Assembly: GCA_964234715.1 (NCBI GenBank)
Contig: OZ174279.1
Length of the DNA stretch: 64,000 nucleotides
Source of the DNA: Podarcis melisellensis
Taxonomy: Eukaryota
Direction: 5' to 3' (one strand)
Below, in pieces: positions 1 to 62,072 of the stretch. A program made the position numbers and the translations under genes. Each line of letters opens with the position of its first letter. The stretch's first letter is position 1. Under the pieces are notes generated by a model. That model did no database searches. It worked only from the letters and a program-made list of their open reading frames with translations, and had not been told where the DNA came from.

Positions 1-3000
1 CGTATTGGAGCTGATGCTGTTTGATCTGTGCACCCAAACTTCATGCTTATTCCTATTACCTGACCCAGAAAAGCAAGCCTCAGGTGGTTGAGCTCAAGCA
101 GATTCCAGCCTATATGCAGAGATTCTGGGGGTTTTTCAGCTTTTTCCTGTCCCAATGTGCAACAGCCTTTCTCCATTCCTTCAGTGTCCTGTGTGCTTCC
201 CAGGCGTAGGTTTGGGGCAAAGAGTGAGTCATGATTTAAGCGCACATTCTAATGCAAGGATGAGGAGCCTGTGGCCATCCAAATCTTGTTAGATTCCAAC
301 TCCCATCAACAAGGCAAATAGTCAGGGATGCTGGGAATTCTACTTCAACATCATTTGGAGTACCAGAAGTTCCCCACACAACTTCTAATGTGTGTTGTCC
401 TCCTTTTCTAGTTAAATCTCAAATGGTTCTCCTCTGATGTCATCCTTTCCTGATCTAGAAGCTCATTGAGTTGAGGAAGAATCACACCCCCAACATATTC
501 CCTCTGCTTGTTGGTCTCTAGAATTCAGTGAATATTCAAAGGATTTCTGTCGCTGGGTCAAGTTGCCCAGTGGAGGTGGTCAGACTCATTTTCAGCTCTC
601 CCCTACTAGACCTGGGCTCAGTATTTCAAGATGGTACTTCCTCCTGCATTCACTGTCCATCCCAGCCTATTTCTGGACCCAATGAGTGGCATATTGCTCT
701 GAAGCATGAACTTGTCTCTGTCATTTCCAGAGTCACACACAACTGTTTGGTAGGATGCTGGCAACGAGCGCTGAAAAATTGAGGAACATCAACGGCTGCA
801 TTTCGTACCAACTTCACTCTCTAGTGATGTTAATTCTGTATTTAGCAGGTGCCAGTCTTGAGTTTTGTAAATTTCATTGTGATAGGTGTATCTTCTTGAG
901 GAAGGCAGAGAAATAGCCTAACTTGTGGATGGACTGAATATGGGTGGAACTTAACTGCCTGCGAGAGATGACGATGTCAGCTCTGGTTTACCATGAGGAC
1001 TTCTTGAAGTTAAGCCCATTTCTTGAGAGTGAAGTTGAGATTCTAAATGATGCCAGTACCTTGGGCTGAAAGTGTGCTTGCTGTAATGTTGATCTCAATA
1101 TCCTTGGGAAATAGTAATGATACCATTTATTGTTTAAGTACCTAACCCAGGGGTAGGGAACCTGCTGCCCTCCAGATGCTGCTGGACTCCCACCATCCCT
1201 GACCTCCAGCAACATCTGGTGCCCCATCCCTGGTTTAATGTAACTGAATAGTAATGACTGAAAATGTATTTCAGCTCTGAACTCCTTGTTCTCCAAGCCC
1301 CATGCTCTGTCAGCCACACCACACACTACCTGATTTGTCCAGGTAGAATGAGGACACCATTGGTCCTCCTGCCCTCCTTTGCCAGTTTCCCATACTATTT
1401 GTCAGGAAAGTTCATTTCACAGCTGGGCATCAGAGCTTAGGTGTATATTCATAATGCATATTCAGAAGGATGCATTTTGTCCTCTGTGCCATTGGCTATA
1501 GCACCCAAGTCCCTAAAACTGGCATGTTAGAGTCATCCTTGTGTTTGCCTGAGGATCAAGACAAGTTCCTCATGGGCCATGCCTCAGTTTTCCTAGGTCA
1601 TGCAATAGGCATTTATGGTTAGTAAGGAATGAATAACTTTAGTTCACTCTGGAGTCAAGGCACTCAGAATTTGTCAGTCTACCTTAGCTCAGCATCCATG
1701 GTTGAGGTTTAACAGAGGCAAACAGAAACAGAATCATCAGGTTTAGCCAGCAGCTTGTGTTCTTCTCAAGATTTAAAGCCAGTTTGGCTTTATGCTTTAT
1801 GTTTGGCTTTATGTTTAACACAGGTGCACCCTTGCTTGGATGGCAAACACCAGAAAATATGAATTCTGGTATTCTGATTTAGTCTGTGCCAACTGTTCAC
1901 ATGTGAACTTTTTTGTTTGTTTAAAAGTAGCACTTTTAAGGTGCTGGACTGTCTCTGCCCAAGTCCCCTTTGTCCACCCCTTTCACTGCTGTTCACAGGC
2001 TTTTTGCTGCCTGATCAACTGATGTTTCAGAGTTTGGGGTGGGGAGGGAGAGCATGTATTCAGCAAGATGATGTCATGCAGCCAATTTGATTTGGCTGTG
2101 TGCAAACACTGTCAAGCCAATTCATAGCGAGAGTAGTGTTTCCTGCATCACATTATATCCTCACTCTCAATATGCTCTGGGGATGACAGGGAGAGTGCTT
2201 ATCAGGGCGGTAGGGCCATCACCCGTTTTAACACCCACCCCAGTGGAAAAAGCATTTGCAAAAAGCCCTTCTTCCTGCCACACACACATTTTGTCTCACC
2301 CTAAGTGCAGTGTCGTTTGTTCCATTGTGTTGAAATCCTTGTGAGAATTGGGATATTTCCAATCAAACACTGCAGGTGCAAATGGGAAAGTTGGCTTCTT
2401 TGCTTCCTGTTAAAACAAATGGAATCCCCCCCCCCTACGTCTTTCCCTGGCTCTGCCTCTTTAAAAGACTCACCCGTTCATGGAACATGCTGCTCAATGG
2501 GGCTTGCTCCCCTAATGTTCCAACCTGATACAAAAGACAATGTAGATTAAGAACATTTCCCCTGTAGCTGGCTGCAGACAGTTAATCAAATTGCCCCAAG
2601 AAAAGAGAGATTCAATTTGTGTGAAGGGTGGAAAAGAAGATTAACTTGGTTCAAAACAGAATATTTGGTGTGAGGGATCAACTGGTATCCTCGCAGCGGC
2701 TTCTCCAGGGACTGAATCGCAACAACTAGGCACTTGATGTATCAGCCCGGATTTGCTGAAATCTTGGACCGCCAATATTTATGCAATATCCTGCATAAAG
2801 TATGGAGCTGGATGGAAGGTTTTTGCATCTATCATGCCCCCCTCCCAGACATGCATGTTTATTAGTTGAGGGGGTTTGCCAGTGGCCTGCAAGGAAAGGT
2901 GCCTCTGATTCAAACTCCAAGCTCAGGTGGGCCTGGTGTCATCTCTCTTTTTCTGCAAGTATAAAAACCTGAATTTTGGCCACGAGAATGTGACTTTTTG

Positions 3001-3986
3001 GACTCTGCCATAAGCAAGGGTATCATCTAATGTTAACTAGTGAGAAGATGCATTTTTTTGTTTTTATGTTAAAATTATATTATCTTTAATGCAATTTCTT
3101 TTCTTAAATGTAATATAAGTTGTTACCATATTTCCCCTTAGGATTCAAGGGTCTGCACCCTTATTATTTGGTCTGCCAGTGCTTTGTTCCTGCTCCAGAG
3201 GAGCTTCAGTGGTACTAGGATACAAGCCTGCTTATAGTTTGACTCTTTCCCATAAAACCTTTGTACTTAATCTTAGGGCCTTAGTACATCATTTTTATCA
3301 TGCATTCATGTATTGATAGTGCTATCTACATGGTCATACACAGTCCCACTTTCAATACTGTTTGAAACGTTTGCAAACGTTTTGGGGTGGTCACACTGCT
3401 TCATTCCCAATCAGTGCCTATCTTATAACTTCCTGCTAAAATCCCATAACTTATTATACCACCAACAAACTGGTTTATCTTGTTGCACTGTAACCCCTCC
3501 AATAATGTGGTAGCATTGGGGAAGCATTGCAGACCAACTAATGAAGTAGAACAAACCCACTGCTAATGGACTATTACTGTGTCAAGAGCAAGTTACATTA
3601 ATGCATATGAAATAAAACAGTCTGGACGGGTCTCTAGGTGTGCAGAAGCAGATTGTGGCTAATGAATGAAAGGCACTCTGCACATGCCCTAAGGTGCTCT
3701 CTTCTGTATTATTCATTCACATGCCATTAGAGCTGGGCCCAGTCCAAATAAAGCACAGACTCTCCTGTTAAAAGTGCCCTGGAATGCTGTGAGCTCCCTG
3801 TGACACTGGGCGAAGAGAAATGATTCTGGATCAATTAACCAGATTGAGACAGTAACATCTGTAGCCAAAAATAGCCTTTTGTCAATATTTGGCTGAGCTT
3901 TATTAATAATCAGCTCCCACTCTGATTAGCAGCTTTGTAATAAGATTCAGCTGTGACCTAAATTTAACTCTCCTAATGGATAAAGC

Positions 3987-4042
3987 AGAAGAAGAAGAAG
4001 AAGAAGAAGAAGAAGAAGAAGAAGAAGAAGAAGAAGAAGAAG
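3987..4042 (+). repeat. (GAA)n microsatellite
   Basis: Direct observation. Confidence 0.95.
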
Positions 4043-4561
4043 GTATTAGCCATCATTAGATCAGCCTGACCAGGCCAGGTAATCTAGGTGAGTGAGCTCC
4101 CAGCTGCAGGAAAGGGCATCCATGTCATCAGTGATGACCCCTCATTTCCTGAGCATTGCCTTAGCTGAACAGACGGCACAGGCAGATTCAAATTCTGTAG
4201 GACCCACGTTCCGCTGCTGGCTGAGTTGCGTTTTAAGGAATCTGTTGCTGTTATATAACTATGAAATGGTCCATGTGATCCATTGCCCTATTTCAAATAG
4301 AAATCAAAGCTGGGGTGTGTGTAATTAACCCATAACTGACAGAGATGGGATTGTGTTGGAATATATATATAATATTTATGCTGTTCAGACAAAAAGGCTC
4401 CCAGGGCAGCTTACAACAACCAGTAGTAGGATTGTAAGCCTGAGGACAGGGACTCTCTAAGAAGACATGGCACAGAAGGAAAAAGGGTGGGGAGGGAGGG
4501 AGGAAACAGGAAGCTCAGGAACCAGTTCTTAAAGTTACAGTCTTTATAACACAGTTATATA

Positions 4562-4820
4562 CCGTATTTTTTGCTCTATAAGACTCACTTTTTCCCTCCT
4601 AAAAAGTAAGGGGAAATGTGTGTGCATCTTATGGAACGAATGCATGCTGCGCAGCTATCCCAGAAGCCAGAACAGCAAGAGGGATTGCTGCTTTCACTGC
4701 GCAGCGATCCCTCTTGCTGTTCTGGCTTCTGAGGTTCAGAATATTTTTTTTCTTGTTTTCCTCCTCCAAAAACTAAGTGTGTCTTGTGGTCTGGTGCGTC
4801 TTATAGAGCGAAAAATATGA
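4562..4820. mobile_element. Tc1/mariner-type MITE
   Basis: TIRs CCGTATTTTTTGCTCTATAAGAC / GTCTTATAGAGCGAAAAATATGA (decayed); TA on both flanks. Confidence 0.75.
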
Positions 4821-5712
4821 TAGTTCTACCTACAGATTCTAGAGAGCAGCCCCTCTCTGGAGGTGCTCCCTCCTCCTCAAGGTTATATCTAGGAACAGAG
4901 CGGGTGGAAATGTTTGTGTCAAGAGGGCAGGATTGTTCTTGGCACACAGTTCTTCCCTCAGTCAGCTGATTCGAGGACAGTCAGAATCCTCCTAAAGAAA
5001 GGCCTTGATGGAGTTGCCTGCCTCCCTTGCTGTTCCCTGCGGTGGTTCTGGCTGTCTTGGCAAAGAGCAAGCTCTTCCTGGGAGCACCTTTCCCCTCTCT
5101 AGATCAGATCGGGGAATCTGCCGAGAAAGGACAGAGTGTTTTGTGATGGTCTTGTGCGGCACGGTATCCAGAAAATGCTGCCTGCATTTTTGGCTTATTT
5201 CTGGGGAGAGAGCGATGAAGGATGCTCTGGTGTCCAGAGCCTTCAGCTCAAATTCTCCAAGTACCTCCAGTCTCCCTTGGGCTTGCAGAAGAAGGCAGCC
5301 ATCCTGGGTTTTGTTTTTTGTTTTTTAAATTGAATGCAAATGGCTTTTTGTGATCTGGCAACCCATCCTGCACAGTGCTTGATGGGGGCAGGCTGCAGCG
5401 TTTGACTCCATGCCCTTGGGTCATGGGGCCACACATTCACAATGGCACGGAAAATTAGTGGCTGTGCTTTAAACCTTTGCCGATGTGCAACTCTGTCTGC
5501 TATTTTTACCCAGGCAGGTGGGTGACTGTTTAATTTTAGCTCAGTGCCAGCACTGTCTCGCCAGGGAACTGGTGTGTGTGTGTGTTCACAGCTTTCTTTT
5601 ACATATAGAGGGAGATAAGTGGGGTGATGACACCAGGTTCTTAGACTCTGACTGCATGCAAAGGTGACAGCACAGTGGTGTACTTATGGCAACACAGGCT
5701 ACGCGTAGAAAA

Positions 5713-5880
5713 GTCATAGCTCAGTGGTAGAGGATTTGCCTTGCATGCAGAAGGTCGCAGGTTCAATCCCCAGCAGGGAGAGGCTGTCTGAAACCCTGGA
5801 GAGCCACTGTCAGTGTAGACAATACTAAGCTAGATGGACCAATGGTCTGATTCTGTATAAGGCAGTTTCTTGTTATCCTA
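5713..5880 (+). mobile_element. tRNA-derived SINE (Squam-type); related copies at ~23040-23140, ~25108-25292, ~31658-31862 and ~43220-43290
   Basis: AGCTCAGTGGTAGAG...GGTTCAATCCCC head and shared tail gtataaggcagcttcct. Confidence 0.7.
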
Positions 5881-6470
5881 AGTGCTTTGAACATTTGAAG
5901 ATGCTATATTATTATACAGTAGTAGTATTAGGCCAAAGGGTGAGCGACTGAGCCCAGACCCCTGGACATTGTCATCTGCTTCACATATAGATCACAAAAG
6001 GATTGTGGCGAAGGGCTGGAGGAGGCAATGTTGCTTGTGTATGCTGCATTTCAGGGTACTTATATTTGGGGGATTATCTTTGTTGTGCTAAAGGTAAGTC
6101 CTTACACACCTCAGGTGAATCATGTCTGGTTAGTGTTTAGAGAGAGACTTACAGACCCCTAAGGATATATACACCTGTTTCCTCTTGGTCTGTCTGTCTT
6201 GTAAAAATGCAGTAACTTTGTGAGTGAAGGAGGAAAATTCTCCCTCTCTGAAATGGAAGAAGGTGACACTGTTTATTCCTGTGGGTTACCCAGTGGTGAC
6301 ATGAAGTGTTTGGACTGTTACTCCCAGGTACCCCTTTAGTTTAACAGAGATTACTTTTCCCTATGCCTGTTTTTGATATCAGCCAACTATTGTTTGTTTG
6401 TTGCTGAGAACATCTGCGGCTAAGGAAGCATTCTGTCTAACCAGAAAGTTTGCTTCCTTCATTTTGCTTC

Positions 6471-11384: not shown

Positions 11385-12925
11385 TACCGTCTACAATATG
11401 TTTGTCCACACTGAACATGCACAGCTATTGAGATTGCCATCTGTGCAAAGTGTCATATTTTCTCAGGTCTTATATTTCTAATATGGGGGAGTGTGGGAGT
11501 GATGTCCCTGAAACATAAGGCCATCTTCCATGAAAGGCATGTGAACTGTGTTCAGCAAAAAAAAAAAAAAGTAATTCTGGAGAAAAGTGGAATATGTATG
11601 TCCTGTATTAACCAAAAAGGAGCCTGAAAAGTGTAAGCCATTGAAAAACCACAGAAGTTAAGTATTCAGTCTATCTCTTGCTATTGCCTGACCAGACACA
11701 ACTTGTGTAGACAGTTCCTTGGAAGTGCTGATCAACCGGCATTCTTCATCTCTCACTGGGATGACATATATACTGCCGTTTGTTCTAATTTGCAGTTTTA
11801 TCAGAATGCTTTGATTGGTTTCCAGAAGCACCTGGCTCCTGAGATTATAAACTATACCTGGAAATAGGAGCAGGAAATGTAACCCACATACACTTCAACC
11901 TGCTTGATCTATTCTTTACAAGAGTGGGCCATGAGATCCTTATGTGTACACCTTATAAAAAATAAATACTTAGGCTTCACATCAGTTTCGAGTTGTGGGA
12001 TGTGAGGGTGGGAGGGAGTGTGTGGGAAGATAGGGGTGGGAATGTATGGTGCATGTGAACCATCTACTGTATTTATGTACATGGAATTAGCTTAAATACA
12101 TGGTGTGGCGATGTCAGCAGTCTTGAGCAGGGTGCTAGGGTGAAAGCAATTAAAAATTAAGGTTGCACAGATTTTTTTGAGCTTTAAATTTGGGCATGAA
12201 AATTAAGCCTCCCTTATTCAGGAAGAGGAGTGTGTGATTATTAGTGGTCTTTTGCATCATTTTCCTTCATGCCTTCTGTCATGCATCTGCTAGAGGAGTC
12301 CTCCTCAGATGAAAAATTGCTGCTCCCTGGGGGGAACCATATGGAGGAAGAAGTGAGGCAGACCCAGGCCTATCAGACTAGACTGTTAACATCCCAAGCC
12401 TGGGCTGAGCCACCTCCAGGCCCTGCTAAGCTATCTACCAAGGAATGCAGGAGTTGTTTCTCCAACCAGGAGTTGCCCAATCCTACATTTAAAGCCTGAA
12501 TCTCTTGTGTCTGTAGTGCGATGCTAACTGCTACGTTCCAGATTCCTCTGCTACATAATGCTGTTCTGTACTTCAGTTCTTACCAGACTTCCCCTTCTCT
12601 TCCCGATTTCCTCTAGGCTGCGTTGTCACATGCGTGTCCTTCATTTCACCATCCAGGTTTCTAAAGTATGGGTGGTGGGCTGCTGTGGGAGTGATGAAAT
12701 CCACTTGGCCACTTTATGGCTAAGAAAGCACGGTGGTGTGAGGAATATTGTCCCAAGTCAGTGTCACTAGCTCCCACTAATTTGGTGCCAGACTATTATT
12801 GTCTTGAGGGTCCCCGAGTAGATGTGGGTCCCCAGATGTTTCTTGCCTACCACCCAAGTCCTTGCACAGCACCCCCTGAGTTCTGCTTCATCCACCTGAA
12901 AAGCATCCACCCCACAGAACCCCTA
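11385..12925 (+). repeat. Copy A of a diverged local duplication (copy B at ~16233-17297)
   Basis: Colinear similarity over ~1 kb; copy A has ~450 bp extra (12190-12635). Confidence 0.85.
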
Positions 12926-12987
12926 CAATTAATGCAGGATGTTAGAAGGAATTTTGCTCTTGCATTTGGATCTGAGCAGCTTGCCGT

Positions 12988-16232: not shown

Positions 16233-17297
16233 TACCATATGCAATATTTGTTTATCCAAAGCCCCATTAGACAGCCACAGCTATTGAGATTGCTTCTGTG
16301 GAAAGTGTCACATTTTCTCATGTCTGAAATATCTAATATGGGTGGGTGGGAGTAACGTCCCTGCAATATAAGGGCATCGTCCATGCAAGGCCTGTAGACC
16401 GTGTTCAACAACAAAAAAGTAATTCTGGAGAAAAGGGGAATAATGCATGTCCTGTATATTAACTTCATTAACCAAAATTGAAAACCACAGAAATGAAGCG
16501 TTTAGTTTGTCTTTTGTTATCTCCTCATGTTTTAAGTTTTCCAGCAGTCTAAGTCCATTGCTTAACAAGACACAGCTTGGAAGTGCTGATCAAGTAACAC
16601 TCTCCATGTCACTGCGATGACATATATATTGCTGTTTGTTCCAATCTGCAGTTTTATCAGAATGCTTTGATTGCTTTCCAGAAGCACCTGGCTCCGGAGA
16701 TTGTGAACTATACCTGGAAATAGGAGCAGGGAATGTAACCCCCATACATTTCAACCTGCTTGCCTTAATATTTTTTAGTAAAGTGGGCCAAAAGATCCTT
16801 ATGAGTTAAATAAGAAAGGAGTACTTAGGCTTCACATCAGCTTGGAGTTTCATGTGCGTATGTGTACGATGTATGTGAACCATCTCTATTTATCTACATG
16901 GAATTAGCTTAAATACATGGTGTGGTGATGGCAGCAGTCTTGAGCAGAGTGCTAGTGTGAAAGCGATTAAAAATTAGTGTTGCACTGATTCTTTTTTGAG
17001 CTTTATTTGTGTTGTGACCTGACTGTCCTTCATCTCATCATCCGGGTTTCAAAAGTGTGGCTGTTGTGGGAGTGATGTGATCCTCTTGCCAAAGCAAGGT
17101 GGGGTGAGGCACATTGTCCCAAGCCAGCCCCCACTGGAAACCACTAGCTACCACTAATTTGGTGCCAGACTATTATTGTCTTGGGGGTTTCCAAGCAGGT
17201 GAAGTTCCCCAGATGCTTCTTGGATACCATACAAGCACTTGCAGAGCACCCTGAGTTCTGCTTCATCTATGTGAAGAGCACCCACCCCACAGAGCCT
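16233..17297 (+). repeat. Copy B of the diverged local duplication
   Basis: For example cagttttatcagaatgctttgattg...aactatacctggaaataggagcagg is shared with ~11790-11875. Confidence 0.85.
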
Positions 17298-17995
17298 CAG
17301 CACACAGTGCAAACAAGCCAAGAAGCCCTTGTTTCTAGAAGAGTCCATTTAAGTTCAAAGGAAGGGGGAAGGTCAAAGAGAGCCTCTTGTCACACTCCCC
17401 ACTTCTGTGTCTTATAACTACTTAAAGAATCTGTGGGTGTAACCTTCTGTTGGTGTTGCTGAACTCATGGCTATTATAGTCAGGATGATAATTGCTGTGT
17501 TGGCTTTACAGCTACTTTGACCTGCTCCTTTTGTTGGTGATGACCCTGTTCTGGTACTTCAACCCTGGTCATCCTTGTGCCCATAGCTTCCTGAAACCCT
17601 TTTAACACTGCCCTGAGTTTGAACACGACAAGCCTCCGTTTGCATGGATTTAAGATGCACAGCAAGGTTGAGAACGGATCAGCCTCTCTTTGTGCCAAAC
17701 TGACCTTGGCTTAGTTTGAAAGGAGTTGGCTGGTAGATGCGTAATTCTGTCTCACTGCTGGAATAGATTGCCTTTTGATAGACACTTTCCAGTTCTGTGA
17801 GTTTTTATTCTATGTAAAGGAGCTGCTGCCGGACTAAGCAGTGTGCAGGATGACAGCACCCCATACTTTAGAGTGAATGGACTGTAGTGGCCTGTGGCTG
17901 ACTTTGCAATAGCTTTTCATTTAAGGGGATAAATGCTGCCTTCACATTATCTGTCTGAAGGCTACTAGTTCCAGAGCTTCTGTCTCCTATTTCCT

Positions 17996-53099: not shown

Positions 53100-54300
53100 C
53101 ACTGAACCGCCTTGGTTCGCTATTCCTGCAGCCGGCCTCTCCCTAGAGGTGAGAAGCGTGCTCTGAGGCGCGCCGTTAGCTACCCCTCAGGTCTACGGAG
53201 GCCCCAGCCTAGAAAAGTAGGTCAAACCTCAAGGCAGCGGACCACAAGCTCCTCCTTCTCCACAGATGTGCAGCGAGGCGGAAAGTCGGCGGTGGAGAAG
53301 CCTACCGCTTTCGTGCGCTTACGCAAGACTCCGCCCCTTGCGCAGCGTTTAATCAAACAAACCCCCCGTGGCTACGCTCTGCGCTTGCGCCTTAACCCCC
53401 GCTACTTTGTTTATTTCCCCTCCCGCGTGCGCAGTAGCCTCCTACGGGGTCCGTTCAGTAGCTACGCATGCGCTCCAAGGCCGCTGCTCAGAGCTGCCGT
53501 TGCTCGCCTGCGCAGTGGGCCGCGATCTCGTTTTCGCGCGTGCGCATTGACACGCCCCTCCCCCTGCCGGTCCCTCGCGCCTGCGCGGTTAGGTAGTTTT
53601 CTCAGCCGCCCTTCCCCCACGTCCTTTTCGTTCGCTCAAGCAGCTGCTTTGTTGGACTGCTCGCCCCTGCTCCCTTCGCCTGGCGCGCGGTGGGAAGGAG
53701 GTGGAGCCGCACGTGATCAGCAGCAGCGGCCCCGGTTGGCAGTCGAGCGAGCAGGGCGGTTGGTTCCGGCTCGGACCGGTTGGGGCTGGTTTTCCCCGCG
53801 CAAGCGCAGCCCGCCCCGGTTAGAGCGCAGGGAAGGGCGATGGCGGCGGACGGGAGTCCCGGAGCAGGCCTGGCGGGGATGGTCGACGAGGCGCGGGGGG
53901 AGCCTCAAGGCACACCTGGCCCCAGCCCTGTGGCTGCCGTCGCCTCGCCCAACGAGGCGTCCCCGGCGAGACCCGACCCGGCGGGCCCCGAAGCGGATCC
54001 CGACAGCGGCTCCGGAGCTGTGGGCAACGGGGGCCTTCGGCGGTTCCTCTGCGGCGTCGTAGAAGGTAAGGGGAGAGCGAGGGGCTGCGGGGCCGGGCGA
54101 ATTCGCGGTCGAGAGCGAGGAGGAGAGGCCGTAGCCGAAACAAAGCATCCCCGCCTCTCCCTCCAGCGCCGTCTCCTCCTCCTCCCCGCTCCATTTTCTT
54201 CTGGCTCCGCCCTGGGAATGAAACCTGGCGGCGGAGGGTTAAAACCGTTTGCTCTCCTGCGGTAAAGGCGAAGCTGCCCCTTTCAGTGCATCGGCCTTCC
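53100..54300 (+). promoter_or_regulatory. OGA: OGA CpG-island promoter with clustered NRF1-like sites (e.g. 53380-53390, 53464-53473, 53536-53546, 53577-53586) and E-box CACGTG (53710-53715)
   Basis: Very high GC/CpG density against a CpG-depleted background; repeated GCGCNTGCGC-like motifs. Confidence 0.85.
53840..54065 (+). CDS. OGA: OGA (MGEA5, O-GlcNAcase) exon 1; second in-frame ATG at 53879
   Basis: Ends RRFLCGVVE G|GTAAG as in vertebrate OGA; which ATG is used is uncertain. Confidence 0.9.
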
Positions 54301-55485: not shown

Positions 55486-56909
55486 ACCTGTAAGGTATCA
55501 TGTTGGCTACCTCTGAATCTGGAGAGGTGGACCTGCAGGCTTATGAAAGGCGTGTTCCTTCAGCTTGAAGATATAATCTTGTTCACAGTTGGTGGTAGAG
55601 GAGCATGCATGAATTTTGATCTAGCATAGATTTAAGCTGTGAATATCAGCCTAAATCTAAAGGTTGGTGGTTTTTTTCCACCCACACAGTAGGTGTTGTT
55701 AGCTGTGGTGTTACATGATTTTTTTCTGTGGCATGTTGTAGGTTTGTGGTTTTGATGAGATCTCAATATGGAAAAGGAGGTTTATTTACAGCTTGATTAA
55801 TATAGAAAAGGGGTAGCTAATGTGTCGCCCTCCAGAAATTTTAGACTGAAATTCCCATCATCCTTGAATATTGGCTATGCTGGCTGGGACTGATGGGTAT
55901 TGGTATCACATTGGCTATCCCTAGATATACACACTATCTGTATGTGTGCCTACTTTGTGGGAGAATTGAGAAGTCAGATGGCTACCAGATGTTGTCAGGA
56001 ATTAAATAGGTTTATTAAATCAGTCATGATTTGTGTATATGCAAAATGCCTCTTCTAAATAGCAACTTCTATTACAAGGTGTATATATTGTCTCATGCCA
56101 GTCATGTTTGCACTTTTGTGAAAGTACAGCCAGGCACAGACATAACTCCCCCAAACCCTTTGTTCCTGGAGTGAGAAGCTTGTAATGAAAACTGCCATAT
56201 TGATGGTTTTGGCAACCGGAGAAGAGCATAACAGCTTCCCACGCTGGCAGTTGTCTGAGTATTTTTGCAGGCACTGTCGGGGGAGGGTTCATTCTTACCC
56301 TCCTTACAATCATGTTTTAAAACACTCTAGCTCCACTTCTGATTTAATGCTTTGCTTCAGGGCTTAAGTTGGGTTTTAAAAAATGTGAGCTCAGGAGGCT
56401 ATTATTTTTGACTGGGCTAGTAGCCTTGTAAAAACTTGTGGTTGCCAGGACCCTGCCTCTCCCCTTGTCCCTCTCCCCAAGTTACTGGAATAACATGATT
56501 GTGAATTGGCTGTTTGTGAATGGGCACTTGCTGAGATGTAACGTTCAGGACCTGTGTGCATTTTTCTGTGAGTTACCCAGGTGCATGGATTCCATTGGTA
56601 ACAGATTTGGAAAGGCGGCTTGTGTCATAGTCACTATGATGGCAGGCCTCGTTCACATCAGGGAAATGAACTGAGTGTACATTAGAACAGATTTTCAAAA
56701 GGTCATACTTTGCTCCAAGAAATGCATTCCAGTAGTGCTAAACAGGACATAAGTTCCAACATGTATCATGCATACAGGTTTGATCTCGCAGCATTTTACA
56801 CTGCCGTACTTGTTTATATGTAGCGCTTCAGGCACTACTTAAAGGAACAACTGAGGCCTATTTATTTCAAACCCACTAGATGCAGCTTTGGACAGCTAAC
56901 TTGTACAAG

Positions 56910-57676
56910 TGTCAGGGTTTCTGGGAGAGAGGAGGAGATGACAGAGGAGACGGAGAGCGAGTGGGAGGAGGGGCAGAAGGATGAGGAAGAAGATGACGGA
57001 ATTCTGAGGGAATCCACGAGTCTGAGCAGCGAGTCAGAGGATTCTCAAAAGGGGGTTACCTTAATCAAGCAAAGGGGAGGAGAAGGGAGAAGCGGAGAGG
57101 AGCCCAGTGGAAGACAGAGGAAGCAAGAGACGTCTCAGCCGGAACGGAGTAAAGGGGGTGGAGTCGTCAGCCTCTCGGAGGGAGCAGGATTAGGAGAGAA
57201 CAGAGAGAGGGGGTTGGAGCAGGGTGTTCAGCCGGAAAGGGTGGAGAGCAGAACAGGGGGTGGTGTAGCGGTCGAAAGAAAGGTCAGCAGCAACGTACGC
57301 GCGCCAAGTTCAAACGTAGAGGCGCGCGGAAGTGGAGAGAGCTCAGGGGAGGAGCCCGGCCCTAAAGCCAGAAAGAGGGGGGAAGAGGCGGCAGAGGATT
57401 CAGCCTCAGGCGAGTCACGGAGAGAGGGAACCCAGGGGGGCAGGAAGACCCTGCGGAAAAGAAAGGAGAGGAAGAGGTGGTCTAGAGCCAGGCTATTAAG
57501 TTGGTGCGGAAGAGGGGAGGAGTCAGAGGGGACTTCAGCGGTCTAACGTGGCAGACGTACGGCCACAATGCTGAACTGTATGAGAAGCAGAAATCTTCAA
57601 TAAACTTTTCCTGTAAATAAGCTGCAACGGAGTGAGGTCTCTTGTGAGCTGGGACCCGTCCTGGGTGGCCGTGACA
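56910..57676 (+). repeat. 5' LTR (TATA-like TATTAA 57494-57499, predicted TSS 57525, AATAAA 57599-57604)
   Basis: Direct repeat of 58006-58772 with no differences seen by eye; terminal inverted TGTCA/TGACA. Confidence 0.93.
56938..57546 (+). CDS. Hypothetical 202-aa U3-encoded ORF (acidic N-terminus, basic C-terminus), 5' LTR copy
   Basis: ORF track; uninterrupted; no recognised homology. Confidence 0.35.
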   Translation: MTEETESEWEEGQKDEEEDDGILRESTSLSSESEDSQKGVTLIKQRGGEGRSGEEPSGRQRKQETSQPERSKGGGVVSLSEGAGLGENRERGLEQGVQPERVESRTGGGVAVERKVSSNVRAPSSNVEARGSGESSGEEPGPKARKRGEEAAEDSASGESRREGTQGGRKTLRKRKERKRWSRARLLSWCGRGEESEGTSAV

Positions 57677-57678
57677 GT

Positions 57679-57689
57679 AAGTCCCCTCT
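57679..57689 (+). other. Self-priming primer-binding site AAGTCCCCTCT
   Basis: 2 nt after the 5' LTR; exact reverse complement of AGAGGGGACTT at 57525-57535 inside the LTR. Confidence 0.85.
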
Positions 57690-57696
57690 CCCAAAG

Positions 57697-57880
57697 CAAA
57701 AATTTTTTGCGTTGCTCACCGCCTTAGATTGGCCAAAGGACAGTAAACCGGTCAGAGATCTTTTTTGGGAGGGATTGAGCCCCCCCATCAAGGATGAGAT
57801 CGCTAGGGGGGACAGACCCCAGACCCTAGAAGACGTGGTGCACCGGGCTTTAGCTATTGGAATTCGACATGAGGGGCGTC
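57697..57880 (+). pseudogene. Gag (capsid C-terminal-like) remnant KFFALLTALDWPKDSKPVRDLFWEGLSPPIKDEIARGDRPQTLEDVVHRALAI
   Basis: L-D-W...F-x-E-G-L-S-x-x-I-K-D-E...P-x-T-L-E pattern resembles Ty3/Gypsy sushi/PEG10-type Gag; no pol sequence present. Confidence 0.7.
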
Positions 57881-58000
57881 CGTGGCACGAGGAGGACGGG
57901 CCCCAAGCGCGTGCGCAAGCAAGGACTCTCCCTTTTGTGCACAGGGACTTCAGCCGTGCGCACCCCTCGCCAATGGGGAAGGGGGGGCTTCGAGGGGGGG

Positions 58001-58642
58001 ATGGATGTCAGGGTTTCTGGGAGAGAGGAGGAGATGACAGAGGAGACGGAGAGCGAGTGGGAGGAGGGGCAGAAGGATGAGGAAGAAGATGACGGAATTC
58101 TGAGGGAATCCACGAGTCTGAGCAGCGAGTCAGAGGATTCTCAAAAGGGGGTTACCTTAATCAAGCAAAGGGGAGGAGAAGGGAGAAGCGGAGAGGAGCC
58201 CAGTGGAAGACAGAGGAAGCAAGAGACGTCTCAGCCGGAACGGAGTAAAGGGGGTGGAGTCGTCAGCCTCTCGGAGGGAGCAGGATTAGGAGAGAACAGA
58301 GAGAGGGGGTTGGAGCAGGGTGTTCAGCCGGAAAGGGTGGAGAGCAGAACAGGGGGTGGTGTAGCGGTCGAAAGAAAGGTCAGCAGCAACGTACGCGCGC
58401 CAAGTTCAAACGTAGAGGCGCGCGGAAGTGGAGAGAGCTCAGGGGAGGAGCCCGGCCCTAAAGCCAGAAAGAGGGGGGAAGAGGCGGCAGAGGATTCAGC
58501 CTCAGGCGAGTCACGGAGAGAGGGAACCCAGGGGGGCAGGAAGACCCTGCGGAAAAGAAAGGAGAGGAAGAGGTGGTCTAGAGCCAGGCTATTAAGTTGG
58601 TGCGGAAGAGGGGAGGAGTCAGAGGGGACTTCAGCGGTCTAA
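58001..58642 (+). CDS. Hypothetical U3-encoded ORF, 3' LTR copy; extends to a strong-Kozak ATG at 58001 beside the PPT (213 aa)
   Basis: Same frame as ORF 57857..58642; gggATGG context; stop is followed by AATAAA at 58695. Confidence 0.4.
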   Translation: MDVRVSGREEEMTEETESEWEEGQKDEEEDDGILRESTSLSSESEDSQKGVTLIKQRGGEGRSGEEPSGRQRKQETSQPERSKGGGVVSLSEGAGLGENRERGLEQGVQPERVESRTGGGVAVERKVSSNVRAPSSNVEARGSGESSGEEPGPKARKRGEEAAEDSASGESRREGTQGGRKTLRKRKERKRWSRARLLSWCGRGEESEGTSAV

Positions 58643-58772
58643 CGTGGCAGACGTACGGCCACAATGCTGAACTGTATGAGAAGCAGAAATCTTCAATAAA
58701 CTTTTCCTGTAAATAAGCTGCAACGGAGTGAGGTCTCTTGTGAGCTGGGACCCGTCCTGGGTGGCCGTGACA
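58006..58772 (+). repeat. 3' LTR (AATAAA 58695-58700)
   Basis: Direct repeat of the 5' LTR, preceded by the PPT and followed by the TSD. Confidence 0.93.
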
Positions 58773-58946
58773 ACAAGTTTACCTCTTTAGTTCTTACTGT
58801 GCCCTAATTAAAGTTGCTTAACAAATGTATATAATGAATTATTAAACTAATAATTATTAGTTTATTATGGCTTAGATGTTGCACTTGATATTTTGTTAAG
58901 AAGCAGCACAATATTTGAAACTGTCTACCATCAATATTTCCCACAG

Positions 58947-60200: not shown

Positions 60201-60298
60201 ACTTCAGAAATGGGGACTGAATGCATACCTATATGCACCAAAAGATGATTACAAGCACAGGATGTTTTGGCGAGAAATGTATTCTGTGGAGGAAGCTG
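60201..60298 (+). CDS. OGA: OGA exon 3 ([32 protein letters not shown])
   Basis: YAPKDD motif; canonical splice sites; 98 nt. Confidence 0.97.
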
Positions 60299-60560
60299 GT
60301 AATTAACTTTATTGCATTTTTAAATATCTATATTCATTGAATTACAGTTGTTTCCACATTTGGATGGTAAATTAAAAGTGAAGTTGAGAGGGGTAAGCTT
60401 TTTGTTGTTTTAATTAGAAGATGCATTAAATAACTCTTAGAGGTTTTCCTGCCTAGCTGGATGAGAGAAAATCAGTGTTCTGTTAAAGTACACACAGATA
60501 ATTTTTTAATATCCTCCCCAACCCAACAGTCCAGTTATGGAACTCAAGACAGTGTACATA

Positions 60561-60618
60561 GGATTCTTAGGTGGTCCTCCCATCCAGTCACTGGCCATAG
60601 CCAGACCTGCTTAGCTTT
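60561..60618 (-). repeat. 5S rRNA-derived fragment (SINE3-like head or 5S pseudogene piece)
   Basis: Minus strand AAGCTAAGCAGGTCTGGCTATGGCCAGTGACTGGATGGGAGGACCACCT resembles the 5S internal promoter (A box to C box). Confidence 0.55.
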
Positions 60619-61595
60619 AACAAGGTTGCTGCATTATATCACCTTGAATGATGCCATGGGATGATCCCTTTGCCTCAATGCTAGGGAGAAAGAAGACATA
60701 TTCAACAGTGACAACCCACAATGCTTCATTAATGGAGGAGAGAACAATGCCTGTGCTCCTAACTGACTTAGTTTCTTATTATATCAGCCTGGTACAGATA
60801 TAGCACAGTCTTTTCTCTTCTAACCCTGGTTCATGTGCTCAGCATTTTCCCCACCATCATCATCATTTCCTCCAATTCTTTCATTTTCAGAGCAAGCTGT
60901 GGTGCAGCATTACATTTGCACCAGCATTTTTGTGAACCACACTTTGCAAATCGATTTCTGTTGCAGCTGGACTGCCACTTCCCCACTCCCTTTCTACAGT
61001 GTCATCTACCACCTAGAGTCCTGTGGGACAGATTCCAGAAGAGAGAGGTTGGCTAGCAAAGACACCAGAGCCTGCTCCAGCCAGAATTGCTCCTGCCCCC
61101 TAAGTAGCCTGTGAAGAGGCTTTTGATGAGAAAGTTACATTAATGATACAACAACAATATTAAAAATATATTTCATTATATGCCACTTTGAAAATATTTG
61201 TATCCTGAAAGGTGGAATATAAATAATTGTAGTGGATAGATGTGATTTGTGCCTGACTACATTAGTAAAAATGCCATTGTAACACTGGATCTGCCCAAAA
61301 TATTTTAATGTCAAAGACAGAAGGAATCCTTTGTTCCAAATTGACATGTGCAACTTGATCCTATACATGCTTACTTAAAAGCAGATCCCAGTTTCCCCAC
61401 ATTTTACCGTTTGTGTGTGTGTATGGAAGAATCAGATGGAGGACTGAGTATGTTTTGACAAAAAATGTTAATTATTCATATTTCCTTGCCCCTTAAAAGT
61501 ATTTTTTGCCTGCATATATTGAAATGTATTCTGATTAATGAAATGCCTTAACTTCATAGTTGCTTGTTGCTAAAATAGTTGGCTTTGATTTCTAG

Positions 61596-61726
61596 AGCAG
61601 CTCATGACTCTCATCGCGGCTTCTCAAGAATATGGGATAGAATTTATCTATGCTATCTCTCCTGGACTCGATATTACCTTCTCAAACCCAAAAGAAGTTT
61701 CTACATTGAAACGCAAGCTGGACCAG
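61596..61726 (+). CDS. OGA: OGA exon 4 ([44 protein letters not shown])
   Basis: Homology; canonical splice sites; 131 nt. Confidence 0.97.
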
Positions 61727-61900
61727 GTATCTTATATTTATGTATATTATAATTTTAAACATAAATGAGAAATTGCAAAAACACTGGATAAAGGAAATAT
61801 GCCCCTACCTGTGTTGCACTCTAGGTGGGGTTACATTCCCTAGCTTTTATGTTGTACAATATTAACAAGTGTTAATATTTTTTCTTCTTTATCCTGCTAG

Positions 61901-62072
61901 GTTTCTCAGTTTGGCTGCCGATCTTTTGCACTGTTATTTGATGATATTGATCACAATATGTGTGCAGCCGACAAAGAAGTATTCAGTTCCTTTGCACATG
62001 CCCAGATCTCAATCACTAATGAAATCTTCCAGTATCTAGGAGAGCCAGAAACATTCCTGTTCTGTCCCACAG
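61901..62072 (+). CDS. OGA: OGA exon 5 with the catalytic Asp-Asp pair (ALLFDDIDH); gene continues beyond the window
   Basis: GH84 catalytic DD motif; canonical splice sites; 172 nt. Confidence 0.97.

Follow-up and report, generated by a model that had tools for sequence, protein, structure and literature searches.

An open reading frame of 202 aa (56938-57546, + strand) fills the U3 region of an LTR in the window, by which we mean the whole 64,000-nt stretch of Podarcis melisellensis DNA that was analysed. U3 is normally treated as non-coding and is omitted from retrotransposon protein annotation, and the locus therefore raises the question of whether a protein is encoded here and, if so, which one. 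The original prediction was of an accessory protein kept in the LTR of a non-autonomous element. We are nearly certain that the frame is instead the 211-codon C-terminal end of a Pol/integrase frame, because in full-length copies of the element a 1540-codon pol frame ends at the stop codon of the ORF. The reading that we favor, with a probability of roughly 0.6, is that this end of a young lizard chromovirus Pol is a selected and likely disordered integrase tail that would serve in chromatin tethering and nuclear import.

The frame in U3 and the pol frame of full-length copies

The window copy of the element spans 56910-58772 (+ strand), with two LTRs of 767 bp that are identical to each other and the target-site duplication (TSD) ACAAG (Table 1). 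Between its LTRs it retains only the primer-binding site (PBS), 283 bp of gag and the polypurine tract (PPT), so that the tail copy of the 3' LTR is separated from integrase by deletion. A short shared sequence is found at both internal-deletion junctions flanking the gag remnant, and the second junction has a single match in the genome when up to one mismatch is allowed. Because that junction, the one covered by our search, occurs once, the window copy does not belong to a non-autonomous family that kept a gene; it is a single, internally deleted copy from a young Ty3/gypsy chromovirus family. The element is not a retrovirus, its Pfam domains being those of a Ty3/gypsy chromovirus. All 40 of the 40 scored genomic copies of the LTR match at near 100% identity, and many are paired 5727 bp apart.

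Table 1. Positions, in the window, of the parts of the element and of the neighbouring host-gene exons.
Feature	Position	Strand	Remark
Left target-site duplication ACAAG	56905..56909	+	sequence
5' LTR, 767 bp, TG...CA	56910..57676	+	identical to 3' LTR
5' copy of LTR-encoded frame, 211 codons + stop, Pol/integrase C-terminal tail	56911..57546	+	includes 202-aa ORF 56938-57546
TATA-like box TATTAAG, ~30 nt 5' of putative start	57494..57500	+	putative promoter role
Putative R start and self-primer AGAGGGGACTT	57525..57535	+	complementary to PBS; also encodes last tail residues
AATAAA of 5' LTR	57599..57604	+	sequence
Self-priming PBS AAGTCCCCTCT	57679..57689	+	complementary to LTR 57525-57535
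gag remnant (capsid region), 283 bp	57700..57982	+	99-100% to L031 1441-1723
Polypurine tract, holds ATG at 58001	57975..58005	+	translated within Pol as GGRGGFEGGMD in full-length copies
3' LTR, 767 bp	58006..58772	+	identical to 5' LTR
3' copy of 211-codon tail, the one genomic RNA carries	58007..58642	+	sits in 257-aa ORF from 57869
AATAAA of 3' LTR	58695..58700	+	52 nt past pol stop; sequence
Right target-site duplication ACAAG	58773..58777	+	sequence
Host-gene exons, Pfam NAGidase	60205..62071	+	Pfam match

As an open frame, the ORF is as it had been described. Translation bore it out, as it did the ATG 28 nt into the LTR that starts at 56910; a recount agreed on 13 stops in the other two + frames (8 and 5) and none in the ORF frame; and the motifs that had been cited are found in its acidic, low-complexity sequence with basic clusters. 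At the 3' LTR the frame has an in-frame ATG in strong Kozak context at 58001 (GGGGGGATGG) and stops at 58640-58642, 52 nt 5' of the AATAAA at 58695. The frame does not begin at the ATG of the ORF: it is already open at LTR base 2, which makes 211 codons, and in the window copy the 3' frame reaches upstream to an ATG at 57869 (257 aa). An antisense gene was also considered and rejected, each minus frame containing 4-12 stops.

It had been cautioned that T-poor composition could inflate the length of the ORF. T does make up only 11% of it (67/609), but an ATG-initiated ORF of at least 202 aa appeared only 3 times when the LTR was dinucleotide-shuffled 3000 times, and in none of 3000 shuffles of U3 alone. 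Stop-free runs of that length, with or without an ATG, were found in 13/3000 shuffles of the LTR and 21/3000 of U3 alone, and stop-free runs of at least 150 codons in 198/3000 LTR shuffles. Together with the dN/dS values and neutral simulations given below, the shuffles led us to reject an artefact of composition.

In the full-length copy L031 the pol frame (1842-6464) runs for 1540 codons from stop to stop, through the PPT, where it reads GGRGGFEGGMD, and into the 3' LTR, where it ends at the same TAA as the 202-aa ORF of the window. A frame of 1540 codons ending at this stop is present in 5 of the 8 full-length copies fetched, and continuity from chromodomain to tail in 7 of the 8, the remaining copy (L032) being shifted just 5' of the LTR. 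Of the best 150 matches to the tail, 73 fall in frames of more than 900 codons, including 70 in frames of 1540 codons, and 77 in frames of fewer than 400, the last being what one would expect from 5' LTR, solo or shifted copies. Pfam searches of L031 identified a Ty3-type capsid Gag and, in order, PR, RT, RH, IN, a Tf2-type SH3 and a weak chromodomain. The chromodomain (PF00385) scored E 0.06 in Pol, below the curated cut-off, and 5 of 9 members match it (best E 5.5e-4); the segment has the expected position and a degenerate sequence. An acidic linker of ~140 aa lies between it and the PPT/tail. The gag and pol frames overlap, pol being in the -1 frame, and within the overlap lies GGGAAAC, a putative slippery site like that of PEG10.

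The same GGMDVR passage into the tail is present in four Pol proteins of Podarcis muralis (P0002-P0005), and in two others (P0001 and P0006) the frame is lost at this junction or ahead of it. As a side observation, the shifts of P0001 and of the window-family copy L032 fall close to the G-run, 5' of the 3' LTR, at which copies of a second lineage are shifted (see below).

The ATG at 56938 fares poorly as the start of a gene. Its Met, position 10 of the tail, is present in 1 of 17 elements and in none of 5 database proteins and is confined to the window family among the elements compared; the tail of the active sister family L104 has no Met within its LTR part. HIV nef and MMTV sag are separate genes of retroviruses that overlap U3 and have their own mRNAs. 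The lizard frame shares with them the coding overlap with U3 but continues pol without a break, and conservation is lacking at its internal ATG. Since it is in frame with pol, with no intervening stop, in autonomous copies, we rejected a separate, nef/sag-like accessory gene starting at 56938; of the accessory protein originally proposed, the protein-coding part holds and the stand-alone gene does not.

The element has a PBS that pairs with LTR positions 57525-57535, a self-priming arrangement that places the start of its transcript near 57525. In 12 loci of related families the sequences differ and 10-12 bp nevertheless still pair, and a self-priming PBS has been described for Tf1/sushi elements in the accessible part of the literature (PMC6317226). 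The pol frame terminates 22 nt into R, in agreement with the claim that the ORF stops just past the predicted start. The last ~20 pol codons (57494-57546) overlap the TATA-like box, which lies across codons for ARLLSW, as well as the putative transcription start and the self-primer, and this single stretch therefore has three roles. The tail copy in the 5' LTR lies upstream of the start at 57525 and so would not be transcribed from the element's own promoter; it is a by-product of LTR duplication. A GT just before the PBS creates a splice-donor-like GTAAGT at 57677-57682, and the 12 listed loci, which that motif served to find, all have a donor-like GTAAG after their 5' LTR.

Selection on the tail and its relatives

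We compared the tail among 17 elements, L031 and 16 diverged elements taken from tail matches with long frames; because they were picked by tail similarity, their open frames represent a biased sample. The tails of 13 of the 17 reach one shared terminal motif, at lengths of 205-233 aa, and those of the other 4 are broken. Rates were estimated on 8 elements, the 4 with broken tails and 5 near-duplicates or partial pols having been dropped. Diverged tails are 45-48% identical to the window tail, versus 86-89% for RT.

We consider it highly probable that the tail is kept by selection at the protein level. In support of this we found that: (i) NG86 dN/dS of the tail is 0.19-0.43 in 28/28 pairs of the 8 elements, while the linker has 0.37 and RT-IN 0.05-0.14, and dS differs little between tail and RT-IN; (ii) shifted tail frames give dN/dS of 1.47 and 0.89 and contain 3-10 stops; (iii) a DNA alignment blind to the frame still gives 0.19-0.42 in 21 pairs; (iv) neutral simulations of the same composition have median dN/dS of 0.63-0.78, with 2.5% points of at least 0.42, and 59-99% of neutrally mutated copies gain a stop; (v) both halves of the tail contribute (0.36 in the N half, 0.30 in the C half); and (vi) gaps come in codon multiples in 4/4 cases in the coding part versus 0/7 in R-U5 (7 closer elements, local alignment). 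When all 8 elements are included (+L031), codon multiples account for 5/7 coding gaps versus 2/9 in R-U5, and the two coding gaps that are not multiples (7 and 28 nt) cancel each other's offset. The dN/dS values and the gaps thus agree with the earlier view of U3 as coding and under purifying selection, and a search for the opposite pattern, frameshifts or stops with dN/dS near 1, left coding standing.

Variants within the tail in four public sequencing runs, in which paralogous families are mixed, were synonymous in 16 of 31 cases versus 23% synonymous sites, and among the variants listed there was no change to a stop and no indel. IQ-TREE codon fits to the tail favored the free model (lnL -3177.8 versus -3234.5), but they yielded no omega and the identity of their fixed parameter is uncertain, and we do not rely on them. 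Tail dN/dS, at ~0.27, is 4-5 times that of RT-IN, and selection is therefore moderate. Part of it may act on composition or charge. In all families tested the tail starts acidic, ends basic and is ~60% S/G/E/R.

The tail matched nothing in searches of Pfam, of PDB sequences and of the ESM Atlas. Four remote homologues were found among 1.84 billion representatives, two of them from Podarcis lilfordi, and six in another search. No named relative in these searches came from outside lacertids, which is weak evidence given how often annotation masks repeats. The element's nearest named relatives come from Podarcis lizards, and outside lizards the nearest database matches to its Pol are fish Tf2/Ty3-type polyproteins. 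An AlphaFold2 model of chromodomain, linker and tail, which placed one helix over the terminal basic motif, was uninformative, because its mean pLDDT was 42.5 and the chromodomain failed too. A complex predicted between the C-terminal 46 aa of the tail and H2A-H2B of this genome scored 0.29 against a mark of 0.34. RT and tail trees were mostly unresolved, the 13-row RT tree having been built without named V-clade references.

Insertion patterns and the possible role of the tail

Insertions were listed from the best 150 matches per family with LTR pairs merged, and the window-family list leans to contigs C1-C3. Among listed insertions of the window family on 20 large contigs, 3/79 sit in the terminal 1.5 Mb of a contig (2.5 expected), with 2 more on small contigs, whereas for L104 the figure is 37/72 (4.1 expected; p 7e-12), with 32 more on small contigs. 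The L104 clusters occupy one end only on 12 of 15 contigs, and 35 of the 72 listed insertions on large contigs lie away from ends. When 20 L104 copies were fetched for their end or small-contig position, 16 proved to lie in two related satellites, at no fewer than 12 distinct sites; the two satellites have a motif of ~35 bp in common. The satellite copies include duplicates (L142/L143, probably L144-L147), and the two TSDs of one copy are unequal. Flanks of the window family matched these satellites in 2 of 30 cases, which represent one insertion. Lacertid satellites have been described as centromeric, pericentromeric or telomeric in the accessible text of one study (PMC7397244), and L104 is possibly centromere-targeting.

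Several further features were noted. Tandem periods of 394 and 496 bp occur in some of the L104 flanks (loci L104, L135-L154), as does a form rich in telomere hexamers. Tandem arrays of units containing the L104 LTR are found at C78:162754-180551 (spacing 2885 bp) and C11:186626-196340, where amplification followed insertion. Eight small contigs (C23, C25, C26, C28, C35, C65, C72 and C77; L127-L134) start with telomere hexamers, which are broken by a 30-35-bp motif also present in the terminal satellite. Contig C19 carries many copies of several gypsy families, repeated identical ones included, a load that would fit a repeat-rich sex chromosome.

The two families differ little in the chromodomain (5/54 residues) and SH3 (8/62) and more in the integrase core (47/289), the pre-chromodomain segment (17/32), the linker (65/139) and the tail (109/201). 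The tail is a candidate determinant of insertion preference, on a comparison of two families that differ in the integrase core and pre-chromodomain segment as well. Sister families of similar age with near-identical chromodomains, different tails and opposite insertion patterns constitute a natural comparison, one that bears on how retroelements target centromere-like satellites in a vertebrate; the published work, as far as the accessible sources go, is mainly on plants.

A search with a fish SH3-chromodomain stretch, blind to the tail, uncovered a second, distant chromovirus lineage in the lizard (L155-L192; for example L185:2189-6916, minus-strand coordinates). Its Pol is 45% identical, its chromodomain is canonical, and its single long frame of 1575-1631 codons reads 111-118 codons into the 3' LTR. 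In 23 of 30 loci the stretch read within the LTR is 111 codons long, and 22 loci carry RRSARL; the other 7 copies are shifted at a G-run before the 3' LTR. Changes in G-run length could be either reverse-transcription slippage or assembly error. The tail of this lineage is unrelated in sequence to that of the window lineage (best E 0.91) and shares its plan of an acidic start followed by a basic end. HMGN proteins bind the acidic patch of the nucleosome through the motif RRSARLSA, according to the accessible part of PMC12487698; no RRSARL motif is present in the window-family tail. In fish, Pols P0007 and P0009 (protein only) end a few residues past a Gly-rich PPT-like stretch, whereas the window lineage adds the ~140-aa linker and a tail of 205-233 aa. 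From these sequences, a short overlap of pol with the LTR may be old in the group and the long tails later.

Turning to function, Ty1 integrase has a C-terminal targeting domain. In the integrases of MLV, Tal1/EVD and Ty1, insertion preference is set by a flexible and divergent C-terminal tail that carries short conserved motifs, and the lizard tail is similar in form; function is proven for those tails and only inferred for the lizard one, with which no sequence similarity has been shown. The MLV tail binds BET proteins (PMC5053271) and the IN2 region of Tal1/EVD is a C-terminal integrase targeting region (PMC11735389), in the accessible portions of these reports. We base our functional reading on this precedent, since integrase C-termini set target choice in CRM, Tal1/EVD and MLV-BET, and by this analogy tethering or targeting would be, on somewhat better than even odds, the main role of the tail. 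In such a scheme Pol would be made by -1 frameshifting at GGGAAAC and the tail would stay on mature integrase. Its basic motifs, EPGPKAR[KR][KR] and an R/K-rich helix followed by RWS[KR]AR[LVI]L.WC, might bind importins, and the same motifs might bind nucleosomes or a chromatin reader. Divergence of linker and tail would then help to set the insertion preference of each family.

The shared charge plan and the moderate dN/dS of the tail, the recurrence of that plan in two lineages without sequence similarity, and the NLS-like integrase motifs discussed in the accessible text of PMC3605345 would also suit a tail that belongs to Pol and is selected but acts only as an import signal, or as a charged, disordered chaperone of RNA, cDNA or particle assembly, the distributions arising from other residues or from purging. 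We think this unlikely, as the conserved aromatics of RWS.AR.L.WC and the HMGN-like motif of the second lineage suggest specific protein contacts, and the youth of the L104 copies, whose LTR pairs match the reference LTR at 99.9-100% identity, has left little time for purging. We regard it as improbable that the tail is a separate accessory protein, either released by protease, for which the long flexible linker could contain a cleavage site, or translated from the PPT ATG at 58001 on a spliced or subgenomic RNA. The ATG (GGMDVR) is present in 17/17 elements, in strong Kozak context, and the donor-like GTAAG in the 12 of 12 listed loci that it served to find; yet the ATG is part of the PPT and the GTAAG overlaps the self-priming PBS, so that the conservation of either can have another cause. 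Moreover, every intact family retains the fusion with pol, the linker between chromodomain and PPT is selected in the same frame (dN/dS 0.37), and the PBS region of the second lineage begins GTTTG. The view that promoter constraint and an LTR rich in purines and poor in T produced the frame incidentally, the peptide being tolerated junk on integrase, finds some support in the T content, in the long open runs among shuffles and in the overlap of the last 20 codons with TATA box and self-primer, but is scarcely credible, being largely refuted by the frame-specific dN/dS, the codon-multiple gaps, the synonymous excess along the whole tail and the rate at which neutrally mutated copies acquire stops.

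Chromatin tethering and import by an integrase tail, the reading that we favor, has its nearest parallel in the plant CRM elements. Plant CRM group A and certain beet chromoviruses are known cases in which Pol extends into the 3' LTR, and in CRM the CR motif, a C-terminal integrase targeting motif, is encoded in the 3' LTR (accessible parts of PMC3059260 and PMC3605345). The polyprotein frame of the lizard element likewise enters the 3' LTR, and L104 likewise gathers in chromosome-end satellites. CRM, however, is primed by tRNA-Met in a plant host, whereas the lizard element is self-primed and probably belongs to the vertebrate Tf1/sushi branch. CRM-A has lost the chromodomain and has the CR motif (CHDCR), whereas the lizard element keeps a degenerate chromodomain-like segment before the PPT in addition to the LTR tail (PMC3059260, PMC3605345, PMC6317226, as far as their accessible text goes). 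The lizard tail occupies the whole of U3 (211 aa) and matches no Pfam family, and whereas CRM group A concentrates in centromeres the window family is dispersed. V-clade chromoviruses (sushi-ichi, Amn-ichi/ni/san) show the order Gag-PR-RT-RH-IN-SH3-chromodomain, which the lizard element follows with a chromodomain that matches only weakly, and have the self-priming PBS, TG...CA ends and 5-bp TSD in common with the lizard element, by the accessible accounts (PMC6317226, PMC4131045). None of the MLV, Tal1/EVD and Ty1 tails is reported as LTR-encoded in the available parts of the sources; the lizard tail is.

Our search by title and abstract, with Repbase, Dfam and most subscription journals outside its scope, found no published account of such read-through of Pol into the LTR in vertebrate chromoviruses. 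The accessible main text of a centromere-atlas preprint (10.64898/2026.09.17.752431) does not name lizards; its supplements may list such elements. In these vertebrate elements, which are very young and present in high copy, the whole of U3 belongs to pol and is under selection, and promoter and integrase tail must therefore evolve together. As a caution, annotation of deleted copies should allow for an 'LTR ORF' that is really a duplicated part of pol. A wider proposal, which we put forward tentatively and with some doubt, is that at least two distant lizard chromovirus lineages (the RRSARL lineage and the window/L104 lineage) may use U3 for a swappable chromatin-targeting integrase tail, which in the former ends in the HMGN-like acidic-patch motif and in the latter would, through its changes, switch families between dispersed sites and terminal, probably centromeric, satellites. 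This would be an independent animal counterpart of plant CRM in which the same DNA serves as promoter, self-primer and targeting domain.

The host gene and neighbouring sequence

The element lies in sense orientation within what appears to be the first intron of a host gene with NAGidase exons, presumably OGA/MGEA5 (OGA-like), whose first ATG is near 53840. The insertion adds two AATAAA signals and the GTAAGT donor-like site to the host intron, and it might truncate or mis-splice the host transcript. Elsewhere in the window a segment of ~1 kb is duplicated (11753-12936 and 16609-17311, 4.4-4.9 kb apart, 77-90% identity), and many short palindromic and tRNA-like interspersed repeats are present as well.
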